From Microcystis aeruginosa NIES-843 (GTDB lineage Bacteria > Cyanobacteriota > Cyanobacteriia > Cyanobacteriales > Microcystaceae), in assembly GCF_000010625.1 (NCBI RefSeq), contig NC_010296.1, positions 450,001 through 482,000 on the forward strand: a DNA stretch of 32,000 nucleotides. The letters are read 5' to 3'. Under the pieces are notes generated by a model. That model did no database searches. It was not told where the DNA came from and was given only the letters and a program-made list of their open reading frames with translations. Both the position numbers and the translations under genes were made by a program. Positions 6,285-25,305 of the stretch are shown here, in pieces (within the stretch, counting starts at the first letter, position 1; each line of letters opens with the position of its first letter).

Positions 6285-7422
6285 TACTTTGCACGGCTAC
6301 AACTTGCATTTTTTACTCAAGGACAATAATATAGTTTAAGAGTCATAATTAGAAGCAAAGCACTCATTAAAAACATGATTAACCTAGAATTCACGGAAGA
6401 AGAAAAGAACTCACTGTATTATGAAAGATTTCATCATCCCCATCCCCGGGTTCAACTGAAGATGGAAGTTCTCTGGTTAAAAAGCCAAAAGATACCGCAC
6501 CAAAAAATTTGTCAGTTAGCAGGAATCTCGCCAAATACCTTATTAACCTATCTTCGAGATTATCAAGAGGGCGGAATAGAAAAATTAAAAGAAATCAACT
6601 TCTATCGCCCTAAAAGTGAATTAGAGTCTCAAAGAGAAACGCTCAAAAAATATTTCGAGAAAAATCCACCAGCCACAATAAATGAAGCTGTATATAGAAG
6701 AGAAGAATTGACAGGAATAAAACGAAGTCCTACCCAAGTGAGAAAATTCTTAAAATCCTTGGGAATGAAATGTTTAAAAGTAGGTTCTCTTCCTTCTAAA
6801 GCTGACCCAGATGAACAAGAAGAATACAAAGAAAAAAAGCTAGAACCCAGACTAAATGAGGCTAAAGAAGGAAAAAGGGCTGTTTTTTTTGTTGATGCCG
6901 CTCACTTCGTCATGGGAGCATTTCTCGGTTTTGTTTGGTGTTTTGAGAGACTTTTTGTTAAGTCACCGAGCGGGCGTAAACGCTTCAATGTTTTAGGAGC
7001 ATTAAATGCAATAACTCATGAAGTTATTCTGGTTACGAATGACACTTATATTACAGCAACTCAAGTCTGTGAACTCCGGTCAAAAATAGCTGCTTTAGGA
7101 CTAATGATTCCCATCACTCTCGTATTAGATAATGCCCGCTATCAGAAATGTAAAATTGTTGAAGAATTGGCTCTTTATTTGTCAATAGAGCTACTCTATC
7201 TACCGTCTTATTCGCCTAATCTAAATTTAATTGAAAGGCTGTGGAAATTGGTCAAAAAGAAATGTTTATATGGTAAATATTATGAGAACTTTTCTGACTT
7301 TTCTTCAGCTATTTATGAATGTCTGAATGATGCCCATCTGAAACATAAAAAAGAACTGGATTCCTTGCTGACTCTACGATTTCAGAAGTTTAATAAATCT
7401 CAGATTATGAACGTCTAAAGTA
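6285..7422 (+). mobile_element. IS630-family insertion sequence (1138 bp)
   Basis: Imperfect termini TACTTTGCACG.../...CGTCTAAAGTA. TA duplication at 6283-6284 and 7423-7424. hsdR reads ENVEI/EDRLE across it. Confidence 0.85.
6375..7418 (+). CDS. IS630-family DDE transposase
   Basis: 347 aa. N-terminal HTH (ICQLAGISPNTLLTYL). DDE motifs FFVDAAHF, LVLDNARYQK and LPSYSPNLNLIERLWKLVK. Confidence 0.9.
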   Translation: MINLEFTEEEKNSLYYERFHHPHPRVQLKMEVLWLKSQKIPHQKICQLAGISPNTLLTYLRDYQEGGIEKLKEINFYRPKSELESQRETLKKYFEKNPPATINEAVYRREELTGIKRSPTQVRKFLKSLGMKCLKVGSLPSKADPDEQEEYKEKKLEPRLNEAKEGKRAVFFVDAAHFVMGAFLGFVWCFERLFVKSPSGRKRFNVLGALNAITHEVILVTNDTYITATQVCELRSKIAALGLMIPITLVLDNARYQKCKIVEELALYLSIELLYLPSYSPNLNLIERLWKLVKKKCLYGKYYENFSDFSSAIYECLNDAHLKHKKELDSLLTLRFQKFNKSQIMNV

Positions 7423-19594: not shown

Positions 19595-19939
19595 TCATGC
19601 GTATAGTAACTGATTATTAATACTATCAACAGTTAAGGTGTTGACTAAAACACTAACCCGTTGCACGACCTCGTAGGCAGTTTTCTGAGGGACAACAATA
19701 ATCCCACAATGTTCTCTGCCTTCCTCTATGAATTGAAGATGCAATCGTTCAAAATCAACTCGGTTGTGGGTGACAAGACATCTACCTAAAGAAGCGGCAA
19801 ATTCTAATTGTTCGCTGTCAGTTTTGCCCAAAGTTGACTGCTCAGGAACAGTGGTGACATCTAAACCACGAGAACGCAGAAGTGTTGCAACTAACGCCGA
19901 CATATCTTCGTCCATGTAAAGCGAAGCAAATATGCTCAT
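19595..19939 (-). CDS. DUF5615-family PIN-like putative toxin
   Basis: 114 aa. LYMDEDMS...LLRSRGLDV...THNRVDF pattern. 4-nt overlap with the upstream DUF433 gene. Confidence 0.7.
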   Translation of the reverse strand: MSIFASLYMDEDMSALVATLLRSRGLDVTTVPEQSTLGKTDSEQLEFAASLGRCLVTHNRVDFERLHLQFIEEGREHCGIIVVPQKTAYEVVQRVSVLVNTLTVDSINNQLLYA

Positions 19940-20229
19940 AGCTTACCCAAAGCTGCCTTTACAGAAGGATGCACCAACTCATCGGGGACTTGGTTACGTT
20001 CAATGTACTCGTTAATTTCTGCTTGATGATCCAAATAAAAACTCAAGGCATCGAACACTTGTGCTAAGGTCAAATGAGGTAAATGAGTTGGAATTTCCTC
20101 TGGCATCACACCTAATCGCCACAGACCTACGATTGCGCGAATAGATGTGCGAGTGCCTTCAATAATTGGCTCTCCACCTAAAATCTCATTGTTTCTGGTG
20201 ACATAACGTGAAAGAGTGATAATCGTCAT
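19936..20229 (-). CDS. DUF433-family putative antitoxin
   Basis: 97 aa. ILGGEPIIEGTRTSIRAIVGLW...PHLTLAQVFDALSFY is the DUF433 signature. Commonly paired with DUF5615. Confidence 0.75.
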   Translation of the reverse strand: MTIITLSRYVTRNNEILGGEPIIEGTRTSIRAIVGLWRLGVMPEEIPTHLPHLTLAQVFDALSFYLDHQAEINEYIERNQVPDELVHPSVKAALGKL

Positions 20230-20362
20230 GGAATTAGGTCTCTTAGGGAAATCGCTGATTCTATTTTAGTAAGGGACAGACATGACTTGATCACGCAATC
20301 CAGTGGCTAGAGGAATCCCAGGCTAGATGTTTTTTCGGCAACCTAACCTAAGACTGGCTCTA

Positions 20363-20451
20363 ATAGTTTGACTAGAGAAAAAAGAGGTGCGTTACATTTC
20401 ATTAACTACCAGAGCGGCGTACTGCTACGCAGTGCCTTCGGCATCGCACTG
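20363..20451 (+). repeat. Dispersed repeat R, copy 1 (core plus two-hairpin module)
   Basis: ATAGTTTGACTAGAGAAAAAAGAGGTGCGTTACATTTCATTAAC, then GGCGTACTGCTACGCAGTGCCTTCGGCATCGCAC (hairpins GCGTA/TACGC and TGCC/GGCA). Confidence 0.85.
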
Positions 20452-20513
20452 ACACAAACCGAAGAACCATAAAGATTAGATTGAACATTTCTGGGATTTC
20501 TCTCCAACGGCAA
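20452..20513 (+). repeat. 62-nt direct repeat, copy b (right of the TA cassette)
   Basis: See 19449-19510. Confidence 0.85.
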
Positions 20514-20549
20514 AGTTAGCCTGCTTTTGGGGCAGGGATTAGCGCAAAG

Positions 20550-20828
20550 GTGGTGTTATACTCAGACAAAGTGCAGAAAGTCAAAATCCGTAACTTTCTT
20601 GAATCCATGCTGACAACTACTCAATTTGCGCCCCTGCTCAAGCAATTGTCTTACTCCGATAAGCTCTTATTACTTAACTTTCTTGTAGCCGAGTTGCTCA
20701 AGGATTCTGGTATTGCACCGATGTCTATTCAAGATGATCTCCCTAGACAAGGTTTACATGACTCTTTTGAGGCTGCCGCCATTCTTGCTCAAGCATTAAA
20801 AGAGAAACAAGAATTGACTCATGGCTAA
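20550..20828 (+). CDS. Hypothetical small protein, upstream partner of the retropepsin-like gene
   Basis: ORF with a GTG start at 20550. An in-frame ATG at 20607 (MLTTTQFAPLLKQLSYSDKLLLLNFLVAELL...) is a more likely start. The stop overlaps the next gene's start (ATGGCTAA). Confidence 0.5.
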   Translation: MVLYSDKVQKVKIRNFLESMLTTTQFAPLLKQLSYSDKLLLLNFLVAELLKDSGIAPMSIQDDLPRQGLHDSFEAAAILAQALKEKQELTHG

Positions 20829-21055
20829 TAAGGTAAGATTTGCTTTCACTGAGGTAGATTCTAGTCTTGGGGCATTAAGTGCGCTTCCTTATTTACCTAT
20901 AATGTCGGCTTGAAGGAACCCTCGGTTTCACCTCGGAGATGAAAAGTTCCGCCAGCATAGAACAGCGAAGCACGACTAAGAATAACTCTAATCTATAGTT
21001 GCCAATTTAACTTTAGTATGCTAGAGTAGTTTGCGTAGTAGGTCGATAACGCAAA

Positions 21056-22243
21056 ATGTTTGTTTTAGAGTACAAGCTTAGAGGAAAACCATCTCAATAT
21101 CAAGCCATTGATGAGGCTATTCGGACAGTACAGTTTGTTCGGAATAAATGTCTTAGATATTGGGAAGACAATAAAGGTGTAGGACAAAAGGATGTATATA
21201 AATATGTCACTCAATTAAGAAGTGAATACCCTTTTGTTCAAGACCTTAACTCTACAGCTTGTCAACAGGCTTGCGAACGTACTTGGACTGCTATTCTTAG
21301 GTTCTATAATAACTGTAAGAACAAAATTGCTGGTAAGAAAGGATATCCTAAATACTCTAAACGTACTCATTCTGTTGAGTTTAAAAAGTCAGGTTGGAAA
21401 CTTAATCGAAATTCCAAGAGAATAACTTTCACTGATGGAAAAAACATTGGGGAGTTAAAACTAATTGGTAGTCGAGACTTGTTTGATTTTCAAGAATGGC
21501 AAATTCAACGGATAAGAATAGTTAAAAGGGCTGATGGATATTATTGCCAGTTAATGCTAAAACTCGATGCTAGAGATATAACCCCACAATTAGAATCGAC
21601 GGGTCATTGCCTAGGATTAGATATGGGGTTAAAATATCTTTATGCTGACAGTAACGGGAATACAGTAGAGCCTCCTAAGTATTATCGAAAAGCCGAGAAA
21701 CGTCTTCATAAACTGAATAGAAGAAAGTCGAAAAAGTTTAAGAGAGGACAAAAGCAGTCTAATAACTACAAAAAAGCTAGTCAAAAATACGCCAAGGGAC
21801 ATTTAAAAGTAAGTAGGCAACGAGAAGAGTTTGCTAAAAAATTGGCACTCCGTTTAATTCAGTCAAACGACTTGATAGCCTACGAGGATTTAAAAGTCAA
21901 GAACCTTGTGCGTAATCGAAAACTAGCTAAGAGTATCAATGATGCTGGTTGGTCACAATTGAGAAAATGGATAGAGTATTTTGGCATTAAATACGGCCGA
22001 TTAACCATAGCAGTTAATCCAGCCTATACAAGTCAAGAATGCTTTAATTGTGGTCGGTTAATCCAAAAGTCTCTATCAGTTAGAACTCATGTTTGTTCCT
22101 GCGGATATGTGGAAGATAGAGACAAAATGGCGGCCTTGAATATACTCAAAAAAGCTACGATAGGGCATATCGGAAGCTGGTCGTTAGACCTAAACGCTTG
22201 GGGAGATTTAAGCTCTATTTTGGTTGGTAGAAATACCTGCTAA
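21056..22243 (+). CDS. tnpB: TnpB RNA-guided endonuclease (IS605 OrfB family)
   Basis: 395 aa. RuvC-I LGLDMG, RuvC-II IAYEDLKVKN, zinc finger CFNCG...CSCG, RuvC-III DRDKMAALNI. All three catalytic positions look intact. Confidence 0.9.
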   Translation: MFVLEYKLRGKPSQYQAIDEAIRTVQFVRNKCLRYWEDNKGVGQKDVYKYVTQLRSEYPFVQDLNSTACQQACERTWTAILRFYNNCKNKIAGKKGYPKYSKRTHSVEFKKSGWKLNRNSKRITFTDGKNIGELKLIGSRDLFDFQEWQIQRIRIVKRADGYYCQLMLKLDARDITPQLESTGHCLGLDMGLKYLYADSNGNTVEPPKYYRKAEKRLHKLNRRKSKKFKRGQKQSNNYKKASQKYAKGHLKVSRQREEFAKKLALRLIQSNDLIAYEDLKVKNLVRNRKLAKSINDAGWSQLRKWIEYFGIKYGRLTIAVNPAYTSQECFNCGRLIQKSLSVRTHVCSCGYVEDRDKMAALNILKKATIGHIGSWSLDLNAWGDLSSILVGRNTC

Positions 22244-22297
22244 GACAACTTGAGTCAGTGAACCAAGAATCCCTCGCATAAGCGCGACGGGATTGTC
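22150..22297 (+). ncRNA. Putative omega (right-end) guide RNA scaffold of TnpB; 5' limit approximate
   Basis: By analogy with characterised TnpB systems, the guide RNA derives from the 3' end of tnpB plus the right end. A right-end hairpin is visible at 22268-22294. No expression evidence. Confidence 0.3.
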
Positions 22298-22633
22298 AAC
22301 ATTGACATTAACTTATCAAAGTCAATCCTTGAATGTTTCGGGTCTCTTGGATACTGGCTCTAGTGTTAATGTGTTGCCCTATGAAATGGGTTTAGCTTTA
22401 GGTGCAGTCTGGGAAAACCAAAGGCTATCTCTGCCATTAGGAGGTAATTTAGCTAGATTTGAAGCTGGTGCATTGGTTGTTAAAGCTACTGTTGAGCAAT
22501 TCCCCACCGTAGATTTAGCCTTTGCTTGGACACAAGATAAATATGCGCCGCTAATACTAGGACAGATGAACTTCTTTCTTGCCTTTGATGTCTGTTTTTA
22601 CAGATACGACTTAGCATTCGAGATTAGTCAAAA

Positions 22634-22679
22634 ATAGTTTGACTGGAGAAAAAATATGTGCGTTACATTTCATTAACTA
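22634..22679 (+). repeat. Dispersed repeat R, copy 2 (core only, variant ATATGTGCG)
   Basis: ATAGTTTGACTGGAGAAAAAATATGTGCGTTACATTTCATTAACTA, immediately after the protease stop codon. Confidence 0.8.
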
Positions 22680-22794
22680 AGCAACCAGCGATCGCAGTTT
22701 CGCCTCAAGCGATCGCCCTATGAAAAGAGATTAATTTGTCTAAAGATTTGCTAAACTGAGGACAATAATCGCTTATTTTCAAGGTGTTAACTAA

Positions 22795-23049
22795 ATGTGG
22801 TGGCAAAGTTCTCGGTTAGACCGTATTGAAGCCAGTCTAGAGGCAAGTCAGCAGCGAATAGAGCGAATAGAAAGCAATATTGACAGATTAGCAGCAATCA
22901 GTGAGGCAACGAATCGGCGTATTGATCGGTTTGTGGAAGCTACTGCTCAACAAATGGAGGAATCTAAGGCTCGTATTGACCAACTGCAACAAGGGATGGA
23001 ACAGCTTCAGCGTGCAGTTGGCTATTTTTTAAGTCAGGACGGTAACTAA
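22795..23049 (+). CDS. Hypothetical 84-aa coiled-coil protein
   Basis: Heptad-like RIE/RID periodicity (LDRIEASLEASQQRIERIESNIDRLAAISEATNRRIDRF). No recognisable domain. Confidence 0.5.
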   Translation: MWWQSSRLDRIEASLEASQQRIERIESNIDRLAAISEATNRRIDRFVEATAQQMEESKARIDQLQQGMEQLQRAVGYFLSQDGN

Positions 23050-23124
23050 CGATCGCCTTTTCAAAAATCAAAAAACCCCGTTAGCTTACAATCACTTGCT
23101 TCAATGAATGAACATGGTGCTACT

Positions 23125-23212
23125 ACTAGAAAAAAAGAGGTGCGTTACATTTCATTAACACACCCTACCAGATCGGCGTACTGCTACGCAGTTCCTTCGG
23201 CATCGCACCACG
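23125..23212 (+). repeat. Dispersed repeat R, copy 3 (core plus hairpin module)
   Basis: CTAGAAAAAAAGAGGTGCGTTACATTTCATTAAC...GGCGTACTGCTACGCAGTTCCTTCGGCATCGCAC. Confidence 0.85.
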
Positions 23213-23259
23213 GCTAGAGAAAAAAGAGGTGCGTTACATTTCATTAACTACAAGATCGG
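23213..23259 (+). repeat. Dispersed repeat R, copy 4 (core only), directly abutting copy 3
   Basis: CTAGAGAAAAAAGAGGTGCGTTACATTTCATTAACTACAAGATCGGC. Confidence 0.85.
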
Positions 23260-23265
23260 CTAATT

Positions 23266-23538
23266 TCAAGGATTAATCTGTGAGATTTTGGTGATGTGAG
23301 GAGCTCCTTGTGGTGGTTTATAAATATAGACCAGTACTACGAGATCAGGTGCGTTAGGATAAACAACTTTTCCTTTACATAAAAAGCAGTAATTCATCCC
23401 CGCAACAACCTGAGTTGCAAAGGCCAATGGGGTGTACCCTACCCCAACAAAACCTTTTAAAGCGGCGTCAAATACATTTTTTGCGGATTCAGTTATAGCA
23501 AAACTAAAAGCGGTCCATTCACCAGATGCGTATGACAT
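23266..23538 (-). CDS. Stefin/cystatin-like small protein (QVVAG motif); putative cysteine-protease inhibitor
   Basis: The ORF extends to 23568, but the ATG at 23538 has an AAGGTGG Shine-Dalgarno 5 nt upstream. The 90-aa product is MSYASGEWTAF...YTPLAFATQVVAGMNYCFLCKG...YIYKPPQGAPHITKISQ. It parallels stefin A/B in length, in having no signal peptide, and in the KTQVVAGTNY(Y/F)IKV and LPGQN loops. Confidence 0.6.
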   Translation of the reverse strand: MSYASGEWTAFSFAITESAKNVFDAALKGFVGVGYTPLAFATQVVAGMNYCFLCKGKVVYPNAPDLVVLVYIYKPPQGAPHITKISQINP

Positions 23539-24016
23539 AATATCCACCTTTTCGATGGTCGCATACATGATATGCCCGAAACTGTTGCGACCTTCCAGTC
23601 GCGAGCGTATTCTCAGTATTTATTATACAGCAAATTTCCGAATAACAATCCTCAGAGTAACGATATGTAAACACTCTCGACATATCATACTAAATTCGTT
23701 TATTAAAGACTGATTATATATTTTCCCTTTTGCCTCTTGCCTCTTGCCTTTTGCCTGTCCTCATAATTAGCCTAAACTCAACGGATTTAGTATTAGCACC
23801 ATCGCAGCGAACTTTTCCGCATATCATAACCAAAAGCATATTAGCCAGATTAAACAACCTATTTTAAGTAGATTCCTAACAACAAACTGAAATAAAATAG
23901 ACTTTTCGGGAAGTCTAGCACTAATTGCTTCAGTCCACCCCACAATTACCTAATTTTCGGGGAAAAAGTGCCTAAAATTTCCCCTCGATCGCTCTTATGT
24001 TCGGCACTTTTTCAGG

Positions 24017-24058
24017 GCAAAAAAATCTAAAAATCTTAGCCAACAATGTTTTTAGATT
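24017..24058 (-). terminator. Possible terminator of ldh
   Basis: On the minus strand, AATCTAAAAA and TTTTTAGATT form a 10-bp AU-rich stem with a 15-nt loop, followed by a T-run. The stem is weak. Confidence 0.35.
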
Positions 24059-24076
24059 TATTCAGCCAACCCTAAG

Positions 24077-25072
24077 TTAAATTTTGAGTTGATCGATTAA
24101 ATCGCGCATAATTTTGGCCGAATTATGTAACTGTTCCATTTCTCTGGGACTAAGAGCAAGATTCAGGGTTTTAATCACTCCTTTCTCGTTAACCACCGAG
24201 GGAATACTTAAACACACATCTTTGAGACCGTATTGACCATCGAGGAGAGTGCTAATAGTGAGAATTCTTTCTTGGGAACGTAAAATCGCTTTAACGATAT
24301 CTGTGGTAGCTAAACCGATCGCATAGCTAGTATAACCCTTGCGTTTGATAATTTCATAGGCGGCGTTTTTAACCTGAAGAAAAATTTCTGTTAAGCTTTC
24401 TTGGTCGGCTGCGCTTAAATCCTGCCAATCTCCTTCTAGTAACCTTGCTCCTCCGATATTAGCCGAACTCCAGACAGCAAGCTCACTATCCCCGTGTTCA
24501 CCGATAATATAAGCGTGGACGTTACGCGCATCTACATGGAGTTGGGTGGATAAAAGAGAGCGTAAACGGCCAGAATCTAGCACCGTACCCGAACCAATCA
24601 CCCTAGAAGGCGGAAAATTGGTGATTTTCAAGGTAACATAGGTCATGATATCGACGGGATTACTCACCACCAAAATCAAAGCACTGGGGCAGTAAACAGC
24701 CACATCCTCCAGAATACGGCGAAAAATCGCCACATTTCGCTCAAGGAGATGTAATCTGGTTTCTCCCTCTTTTTGGGCGGCCCCGGCAGTAATAATCACC
24801 ACATCGGCATTTTGTCCCACATCGGCCACGGTTCCCATTTTCAAGTCTGTGGGTTCAATAAAAGGCATTCCGTGCCTTAAATCCATCACTTCCCCTTCGA
24901 CTTTATCCGTGGCGATATCTTGCAGAATTAATTCATCAAAACAGTCTTGAATTAACATCGAGTAAGCGCAGGCCATCCCCACCTGACCAACACCGATAAT
25001 TACCCCCTTGCGAGGACGCAGAGGAGCGGGTTTTTCAGCGTAGGGATTGGGAGTAAATATTTTATCTAGCAT
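24077..25072 (-). CDS. ldh: L-lactate dehydrogenase
   Basis: 331 aa. GVGQVGMACAY Rossmann motif. ITAGAAQKEGETRL (Gln at the substrate-discriminating position, as in LDH rather than MDH). IIGEHGDSELAVWS. Confidence 0.85.
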   Translation of the reverse strand: MLDKIFTPNPYAEKPAPLRPRKGVIIGVGQVGMACAYSMLIQDCFDELILQDIATDKVEGEVMDLRHGMPFIEPTDLKMGTVADVGQNADVVIITAGAAQKEGETRLHLLERNVAIFRRILEDVAVYCPSALILVVSNPVDIMTYVTLKITNFPPSRVIGSGTVLDSGRLRSLLSTQLHVDARNVHAYIIGEHGDSELAVWSSANIGGARLLEGDWQDLSAADQESLTEIFLQVKNAAYEIIKRKGYTSYAIGLATTDIVKAILRSQERILTISTLLDGQYGLKDVCLSIPSVVNEKGVIKTLNLALSPREMEQLHNSAKIMRDLIDQLKI

Positions 25073-25227: not shown

Positions 25228-25305
25228 GATCCCCCCTGCCCCCCTTGATAAGGGGGGTGCCGATAGGCGGGGGGATCCCCCCTGCCCCCCTTGATAAGGG
25301 GGGTG
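25228..25305. repeat. Two copies of a 32-nt G/C-hairpin unit (46-nt period)
   Basis: GATCCCCCCTGCCCCCCTTGATAAGGGGGGTG at 25228-25259 and 25274-25305. Each contains a CCCCCC-TTGATAA-GGGGGG hairpin. The GGGGGGATCCCCCC palindrome lies at 25269-25282. Confidence 0.85.

Follow-up and report, generated by a model that had tools for sequence, protein, structure and literature searches.

A gene of Microcystis aeruginosa probably encodes a cytoplasmic stefin from a large bacterial group within the cystatin superfamily

Introduction

Human stefins A and B (MEROPS I25A) are proteins of about 90 to 100 aa that have neither a signal peptide nor disulfides. Each carries an N-terminal Gly, a QVVAG first hairpin and a proline-containing second hairpin, and in stefins these three elements form a wedge that enters the active-site cleft of papain-like (C1A) peptidases. 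Stefins have also been described in bacteria. Kordis and Turk (2009, BMC Evol Biol 9:266, PMC2784779) identified them across 17 genera of bacteria, with Microcystis aeruginosa and Burkholderia among the examples, and found a stefin in only one of 54 cyanobacterial genomes. The authors proposed that the bacterial genes were acquired horizontally and that their products serve as "emergency inhibitors" against host proteases. A review in 2012 called for more experimental data on bacterial stefins (PMC3594739), and in the literature that we searched no bacterial stefin had been characterised biochemically. One further paper that mentions both Microcystis and cystatin (PMC12390103) was set aside, as it merely cites a cystatin reporter vector.

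Two other inhibitors are relevant for comparison. FhCyLS-2 of Fasciola hepatica (PDB 6I1M) is structurally closest to stefins, and protease inhibition assays have been described for it; this flatworm protein is secreted and carries two disulfide bridges in addition to its stefin scaffold (PMC9986714), whereas the Microcystis protein studied here is predicted to be cytoplasmic. Chagasin (ICP; MEROPS I42, PF09394) also inhibits papain-like C1 peptidases and is also patchy in bacteria, often without a known endogenous target. Chagasin and the Microcystis protein have no sequence similarity. The chagasin fold is immunoglobulin-like and unrelated to the cystatin fold.

Here we analyse a window of 32,000 nucleotides of Microcystis aeruginosa NIES-843 (contig NC_010296.1, positions 450,001 to 482,000 of the forward strand), in which an original prediction made from the DNA letters had placed a stefin-like gene and had called such a gene notable in a lineage known for its non-ribosomal protease inhibitors. 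That notability is now weakened, because the exact sequence is among the bacterial stefins of 2009 and the family occurs in hundreds of bacterial species. Additional file 11 of PMC2784779 prints a Microcystis sequence, TESAKNVFDAALKGF...QVVAGMNYCF...VLVYIYKP, that ends at residue 85; text-extraction noise excepted, it is identical to residues 26-85 of the open reading frame in the window, with matching numbering. The Burkholderia sequence of the same authors corresponds to P0026, one of the relatives collected in our analysis. The stefin assignment of the Microcystis protein is thus already known, having been published in silico in 2009, and for the window alone our results confirm it. The sequence, its patchy distribution and the interpretation by transfer are the same in both studies. 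What is added here is the size of the family, its tandem and secreted forms, the grouping of the Microcystis copy with Chloroflexota and Acidobacteriota, and the locus itself, a repeat-bounded slot that varies between strains and lies by candidate defence genes.

Results and Discussion

Translation start and product

The predicted open reading frame, 23266..23568 on the minus strand, is present and translates to a 100-aa protein in which SGEW occupies residues 15-18, QVVAG residues 53-57 and YKPPQGAP residues 83-90 (numbering of the 100-aa form). The exact protein is found in public databases from Microcystis aeruginosa (BAG00355.1, CCI21002.1 and others), where its name is given as "hypothetical protein" or "conserved hypothetical protein". 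The 100-aa annotation includes a ten-codon 5' extension, MYATIEKVDI, that is without counterpart in most homologues, and residues 1-9 have a pLDDT below 50 in the predicted structure described below. We conclude that translation probably begins at an internal ATG and yields a 90-aa product (Table 1), because the homologues begin at the residue aligned to M11, because other gene callers report 90-aa genes in the same 90% cluster as the Microcystis protein, and because this ATG is preceded, at a distance of 5 nt, by a Shine-Dalgarno-like AAGGTGG. The ten-codon extension is probably not translated. With the internal start, the conserved Gly is the sixth residue, near the place that Gly4 has in stefins.

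Read from the sequence, the N-terminus, MSYASGEWTAFSF, lacks a hydrophobic core, in agreement with the predicted absence of a signal peptide; some relatives of the protein have obvious signal peptides. The product therefore has the features of the stefin type, being a single domain of 90-100 aa without a signal peptide and free of disulfides. Its two cysteines, C61 and C64, lie on a single strand at a spacing of three residues, and the bacterial family does not conserve them.

Table 1. Features at and around the stefin gene (positions in the window; residue numbers of the 100-aa form)
Feature	Position	Strand	Remarks
Four copies of the ~47-nt repeat	20362-20418, 22633-22679, 23125-23177, 23200-23260
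Second repeat copy	23125..23177		On the gene strand, intrinsic-terminator-like hairpin, then T-run
Repeat copy directly 3' of the stop codon	23200..23260		Core GTGCGTTACATTTCATTAAC on the + strand, then T-run on the gene strand
Likely coding sequence	23266..23538	-	90 aa, MSYASGEW...SQINP; stop codon 23266-23268
Second hairpin loop L2, PPQGAP, residues 85-90	23299..23316	-	Between strands 75-84 and 91-97
QVVAG, residues 53-57, first hairpin loop L1	23398..23412	-	Between strands 43-54 and 58-68
N-terminal trunk MSYASGEW, residues 11-18	23515..23538	-	Gly16 at 23521-23523; Trp18
Ten-codon 5' extension MYATIEKVDI	23539..23568	-	In the 100-aa database annotation
Shine-Dalgarno-like AAGGTGG	23544..23550	-	5 nt 5' of ATG 23538; putative role
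Upstream intergenic region	23569..24076	-	508 bp between ldh/mdh gene and stefin gene
MITE-like element, 107 bp	23687-23793		31-nt imperfect inverted ends; absent from collinear contig L091
ldh/mdh gene	24077..25072	-	Upstream, same strand as stefin gene

Profile and structural evidence for a cystatin fold

A match to the Pfam Cystatin model PF00031, which the original prediction had proposed as a check, was not obtained for the Microcystis protein at E <= 10. A Pfam scan of the protein returned noise only (TAXi_N, WWE_5), and an NCBIfam scan returned no match. PF00031 also performed poorly on 33 bacterial relatives collected by sequence search, matching 1/33 at E 0.16, and a six-domain relative scored 22.0 bits against the PF00031 cut-off of 22.2. 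Since PF00031 misses the protein, the cystatin assignment rests on a family profile and on structure. As a single sequence, the protein gave a marginal cystatin match to 6I1M in a phmmer search of the PDB (E 0.017), so that the family profile was needed. We built the profile from the alignment of the 33 relatives, and a search of the PDB with it matched 6I1M at E 3.4e-6, the match taking in positions 7-80 of the 91 in the profile. This makes FhCyLS-2 the best sequence match to the bacterial family among solved structures. The aligned part starts at the N-terminal GG(W/Y), takes in the helix region and QVVAGTNY, and continues as far as the strand before L2. The remaining nine matches listed in this search were weak, and all were cystatins or stefins. 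When the family was compared by hhalign with human stefin B alone, the match was weak, with a probability of only 76% over 37 columns that cover the stretch from L1 to L2.

An AlphaFold model calculated from the same alignment was confident (pLDDT 88.6, pTM 0.77) and had cystatin topology. Its elements are a disordered N-terminal trunk, a helix at residues 27-36 and strands at residues 43-54, 58-68, 75-84 and 91-97, and the helix packs on a twisted antiparallel beta-sheet as in the cystatin fold. A Foldseek search of the PDB, also proposed at the outset, recovered this fold: the top 33 matches were all cystatins or stefins, with probabilities of 0.87-1.00 and TM-scores of 0.5-0.64 at modest E-values of 1e-3 to 1e-1. 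Stefin B was among them; the chain from its papain complex (1STF_I) superposed on the model with TM-scores of 0.60/0.62 and an rmsd of 3.2 A.

The assignment goes beyond chance because the profile match, the predicted fold and the family-wide conservation described below all support it, and not the pentapeptide alone. The original prediction was to be dropped if neither profile nor structure gave a significant match to the cystatin fold, and such matches were obtained. Taken together, these results make it very probable that the Microcystis protein is a cystatin-superfamily homologue with a cystatin fold. The narrower reading, in which the gene encodes a single-domain cytoplasmic stefin (type 1) that belongs to a large bacterial branch of the superfamily, we consider likely.

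Conservation of the inhibitory elements

To describe conservation we used a set of 71 sequences, consisting of the window protein and 70 relatives from species-representative genomes that were gathered by motif. The invariance of ATQVV.G.NY in this set is partly circular, because the motif served to collect the loci. Positions outside the search motif are free of this restriction. The N-terminal Gly-containing segment SGEW had been predicted to correspond to that of stefins, and its Gly, G16 (G6 of the 90-aa form), is kept in 71/71 sequences and aligns with the GG of 6I1M. W18 is kept in 66/71 (93%), and G42 (100%), Y45 (97%) and P47 (96%) are also conserved outside the motif. In the first hairpin, Q53, V55 and G57 are invariant in the alignment of 33 relatives; the predicted QVVAG loop lies in the first hairpin of the model and matches the QVVAG of 6I1M, stefin A and stefin B.

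The segment that had been likened to a second loop also proved to be well placed, since PPQGAP forms the second hairpin of the model and conservation at this loop is 79% for P85, 89% for L86 (P in the Microcystis protein) and 97% for G88. By hhalign, IYKPPQ pairs with VFQSLP of stefin B. The family consensus at L2 is P-L-x-G and the Microcystis sequence is P-P-Q-G, without the PW motif, as expected for the stefin type. Judged from these alignments, the N-terminal Gly, QxVxG and L2, which are all three of the stefin wedge elements, are conserved features of the bacterial family. The Microcystis copy departs from the consensus at two places. Beside the key Gly it has GEW for GGW (E17), a change unique among the 71 sequences, and in L2 it has PP for PL (P86).

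The comparison with human stefins also reveals differences. The Microcystis protein is only about 20% identical to them, is not detected by Pfam Cystatin, and has a shorter predicted helix of 10 residues. Two traits set the bacterial family apart from the human stefins, namely a Trp after the N-terminal Gly and the pattern G-V-x-Y-x-P before strand 2.

Size, forms and neighbours of the bacterial family

Sequence searches retrieved 47 relatives from several phyla, with identities as low as 46%. A relative was present in 309 species-representative genomes, which is a lower bound because the count rests on a strict motif. Among representative clusters, 2,802 matched the family at E <= 1e-3, and 1,699 of these did so at E <= 1e-10. 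Many members have 2-6 tandem domains, and some relatives are joined to tyrosine phosphatase, Big_2, RHS or fn3 domains. Secreted multi-domain relatives occur in gut and rumen Clostridia. Tandem two-domain proteins, secreted multi-domain proteins and proteins with up to six repeats were seen at L053 (5710-6261), at L079 (5890-6864) and among proteins P0056-P0204. In an Azoarcus MAG, one open reading frame (L046, 5605-6255) encodes a chagasin domain followed by a stefin-like domain; the former was recognised by Pfam Inhibitor_I42 at E 9.9e-10, with a score that exceeds the curated cut-off. A similar stefin-chagasin fusion was noted by Kordis and Turk in Bacteroides fragilis (PMC2784779). The fusion of two such domains supports C1 peptidase inhibition as the ancestral role of the stefin-like domain.

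Clustering of the open reading frames up to 4 kb from the gene, carried out for 80 loci, revealed no partner gene conserved across taxa. The largest neighbour cluster was an artefact, composed of open reading frames antisense to the stefin gene where genomes are GC-rich. The other clusters reflected synteny at the level of lineages, for example Pectobacterium genes, and the same was true of a pair made up of a histidine kinase and a LuxR-type regulator in Ralstonia, Luteibacter and Dyella. No C1A peptidase was found in the 80 loci or in the window by tblastn with a papain sequence or by a scan for CGSCW-type active-site motifs, a test of little power given how divergent the C1A enzymes of bacteria are.

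The Microcystis stefin matched none of the PHROG models and none of the PADLOC-DB models of known or candidate defence proteins. Three predicted IMG/VR viral contigs (L101, L102, L103) encode stefin relatives of 43-49% identity. These are 3 of 2.9 million viral contigs, and the genes are possibly phage genes or possibly host flanks of prophage calls. With no PADLOC or PHROG match and only three viral contigs, neither a phage origin nor a known defence role is supported.

The locus and its variation between strains

The gene had been predicted to lie in an accessory islet and to be bordered by repeats on one side, and a ~47-nt repeat is indeed present downstream of its stop codon (Table 1). The 20-nt core of this repeat, GTGCGTTACATTTCATTAAC, has 4 copies in the window against 0 expected, and among 103 loci the ~47-nt repeat is confined to those of Microcystis. 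Integron attC core sites were considered and rejected, as the repeats do not fit GTTRRRY / RYYYAAC by eye.

Differences between strains coincide with the repeats. A deletion in L083 joins 23165 to 20406 and a deletion in L087 joins 23214 to 22679; in each case a pair of repeat copies marks the ends, among them the copy at 23125-23177 in L083 and the copy at 23200-23260 in L087. In L091 (GCA_008579325.1), which has identical flanks, a 166-aa DUF2726 gene at 6397-6897 occupies the position of the stefin gene, and the right edge of this replacement is at the copy at 23125-23177. Because the deletions and replacements end at repeats, recombination between copies seems to reshuffle small gene modules; the stefin module of the window spans approximately 23214-23617. 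These repeat-bounded changes and the exchange with DUF2726 make the description of the locus as an accessory islet broadly right. Several Microcystis assemblies share the order ldh/mdh, stefin, an 84-aa coiled-coil open reading frame, a pair of 137-aa and 73-aa genes, and DUF433/DUF5615. The 137-aa neighbour matches the PADLOC candidate defence protein PDC-M52B at E 7.7e-50.

Origin of the Microcystis copy

The closest relatives of the Microcystis protein, at 64-66% identity, are from Chloroflexota, Thermoanaerobaculaceae and Holophagales (Acidobacteriota), whereas other cyanobacterial relatives are only 46-57% identical to it. A neighbour-joining tree, built without bootstrap support, places the Microcystis copy among sequences from Chloroflexota and Acidobacteriota and not with those of other cyanobacteria. 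No Microcystis species-representative genome was among the best matches in the scan of species-representative genomes. The G+C content of the stefin gene is 41%, which equals that of the window and is consistent with an inter-phylum transfer that was not recent or that came from a donor of similar composition. We conclude from these comparisons and from the exchange with DUF2726 in L091 that the gene is an accessory cassette in Microcystis and was probably acquired by transfer between bacterial phyla.

Mechanism and possible targets

By analogy with characterised stefins, we think there is good reason to expect that the Microcystis protein inhibits papain-like cysteine peptidases. In the predicted structure, with its one helix on a twisted antiparallel sheet, Gly16 of the trunk, Q53-V-V-A-G57 and P85-P-Q-G88 lie on the same edge and could form the wedge that these elements make in stefins. 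The protein would then inhibit tightly, reversibly and competitively, without itself being cleaved. As it has no export signal, it would act inside the cell or after lysis. Inside the cell its target might be an endogenous, injected or phage-borne papain-like enzyme; after lysis it might act, for example, in the food vacuole or gut of a grazer. An endogenous target is possible because cyanobacteria possess short C1A peptidases (PMC10380794). The 80 loci, with no peptidase and no conserved neighbour, offer no partner to point to.

The bacterial branch is large, it is missed by the Pfam Cystatin model, and the Microcystis protein is still "hypothetical" in databases. With a branch of this size, an enzymatic assay of one member would annotate thousands of proteins. 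The same assay would show whether bloom-forming cyanobacteria pair a ribosomal cysteine-protease inhibitor with their non-ribosomal serine-protease inhibitors.

Several readings of the target have to be weighed. We entertain, tentatively, the possibility that the protein inhibits an intracellular papain-like enzyme, either a C1A peptidase of Microcystis or a protease of a phage or competitor, and in a second version of this reading the gene would be a conflict or immunity cassette. The predicted cytoplasmic location of the protein agrees with both versions. So does the position of the gene in a variable, repeat-bounded slot beside the PDC-M52B-like pair and the DUF433/DUF5615 pair, where DUF2726 stands in place of the stefin in another strain. 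On the other side are the negative PADLOC and PHROG searches, the rarity of relatives among viral contigs and the lack of a partner gene conserved across taxa.

It is also possible, if somewhat doubtful, that the protein is directed against eukaryotic enemies and, once released on lysis, inhibits enzymes such as the digestive cathepsins of grazing protists and zooplankton or those of parasitic fungi. Daphnia gut proteases, though, are mainly serine proteases. The reading with eukaryotic targets was part of the original prediction and comes near the role of "emergency inhibitor" suggested by Kordis and Turk, who argue that bacterial stefins most probably target eukaryotic host proteases (PMC2784779). 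The secreted and multi-domain forms of gut and rumen Clostridia would fit a host-facing role for part of the family, and the accessory nature of the gene in Microcystis would fit as well, but nothing in the locus links the stefin to grazing, and without a signal peptide the protein could act outside the cell only after lysis.

We think it rather unlikely that the locus is a defence-island-like hotspot in which the stefin, as an exchangeable cassette, serves to block a papain-like protease of a phage, competitor or grazer. If this were true, bacterial stefins would be a ribosomal protease-inhibitor arm of microbial defence and not a stray eukaryotic import.

Finally, the protein may have a cystatin fold and inhibit no protease, with the scaffold used as a binding or structural module as in some eukaryotic members of the superfamily, a reading to which a literature search that found no assay of any bacterial member, the absence of an adjoining protease gene in the loci compared, the fusions to unrelated domains, E17 and P86 at otherwise conserved positions, and the trend of vertebrate families to lose inhibitory activity (Kordis and Turk, PMC2784779) all lend something, but which we regard as unlikely, given that the best-kept positions across phyla are the three inhibitory elements and that the chagasin fusions link the domain to C1 inhibition. 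Inhibition of papain-like peptidases thus remains the reading that we prefer.

Other features of the locus

The region upstream of the gene had been described as free of open reading frames over about 500 bp, which is correct in part. It has only open reading frames of less than 50 aa, and it holds the 107-bp MITE-like element (Table 1). The region 23569..24076 presumably holds the stefin promoter; a consensus promoter scan upstream of the gene returned no promoter, and an Rfam scan of 20200-24200 returned nothing credible.

Downstream, the PDC-M52B-like gene of the window lies at 22293-22637. It is retropepsin-like, has a DTGS motif and is shortened to 114 aa, and it is interrupted by a 1,402-bp tnpB-only IS605-type element at 20898-22299 (TnpB open reading frame 21056-22243). 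In other strains the intact 137-aa gene abuts its 73-aa partner, whereas in the window the partner-like open reading frame, 20550-20828, is separated from it by the insertion. The genes of the DUF433/DUF5615 (PIN-like) pair, at 19595-20229, have a stop/start overlap typical of toxin-antitoxin pairs, and the pair was present in all strains examined. On the other side of the stefin gene, between the ldh/mdh gene and a DUF952 gene, a 32-nt sequence of G/C runs, GATCCCCCCTGCCCCCCTTGATAAGGGGGGTG, is present in two perfect copies at 25228-25259 and 25274-25305, the starts of which are 46 nt apart.
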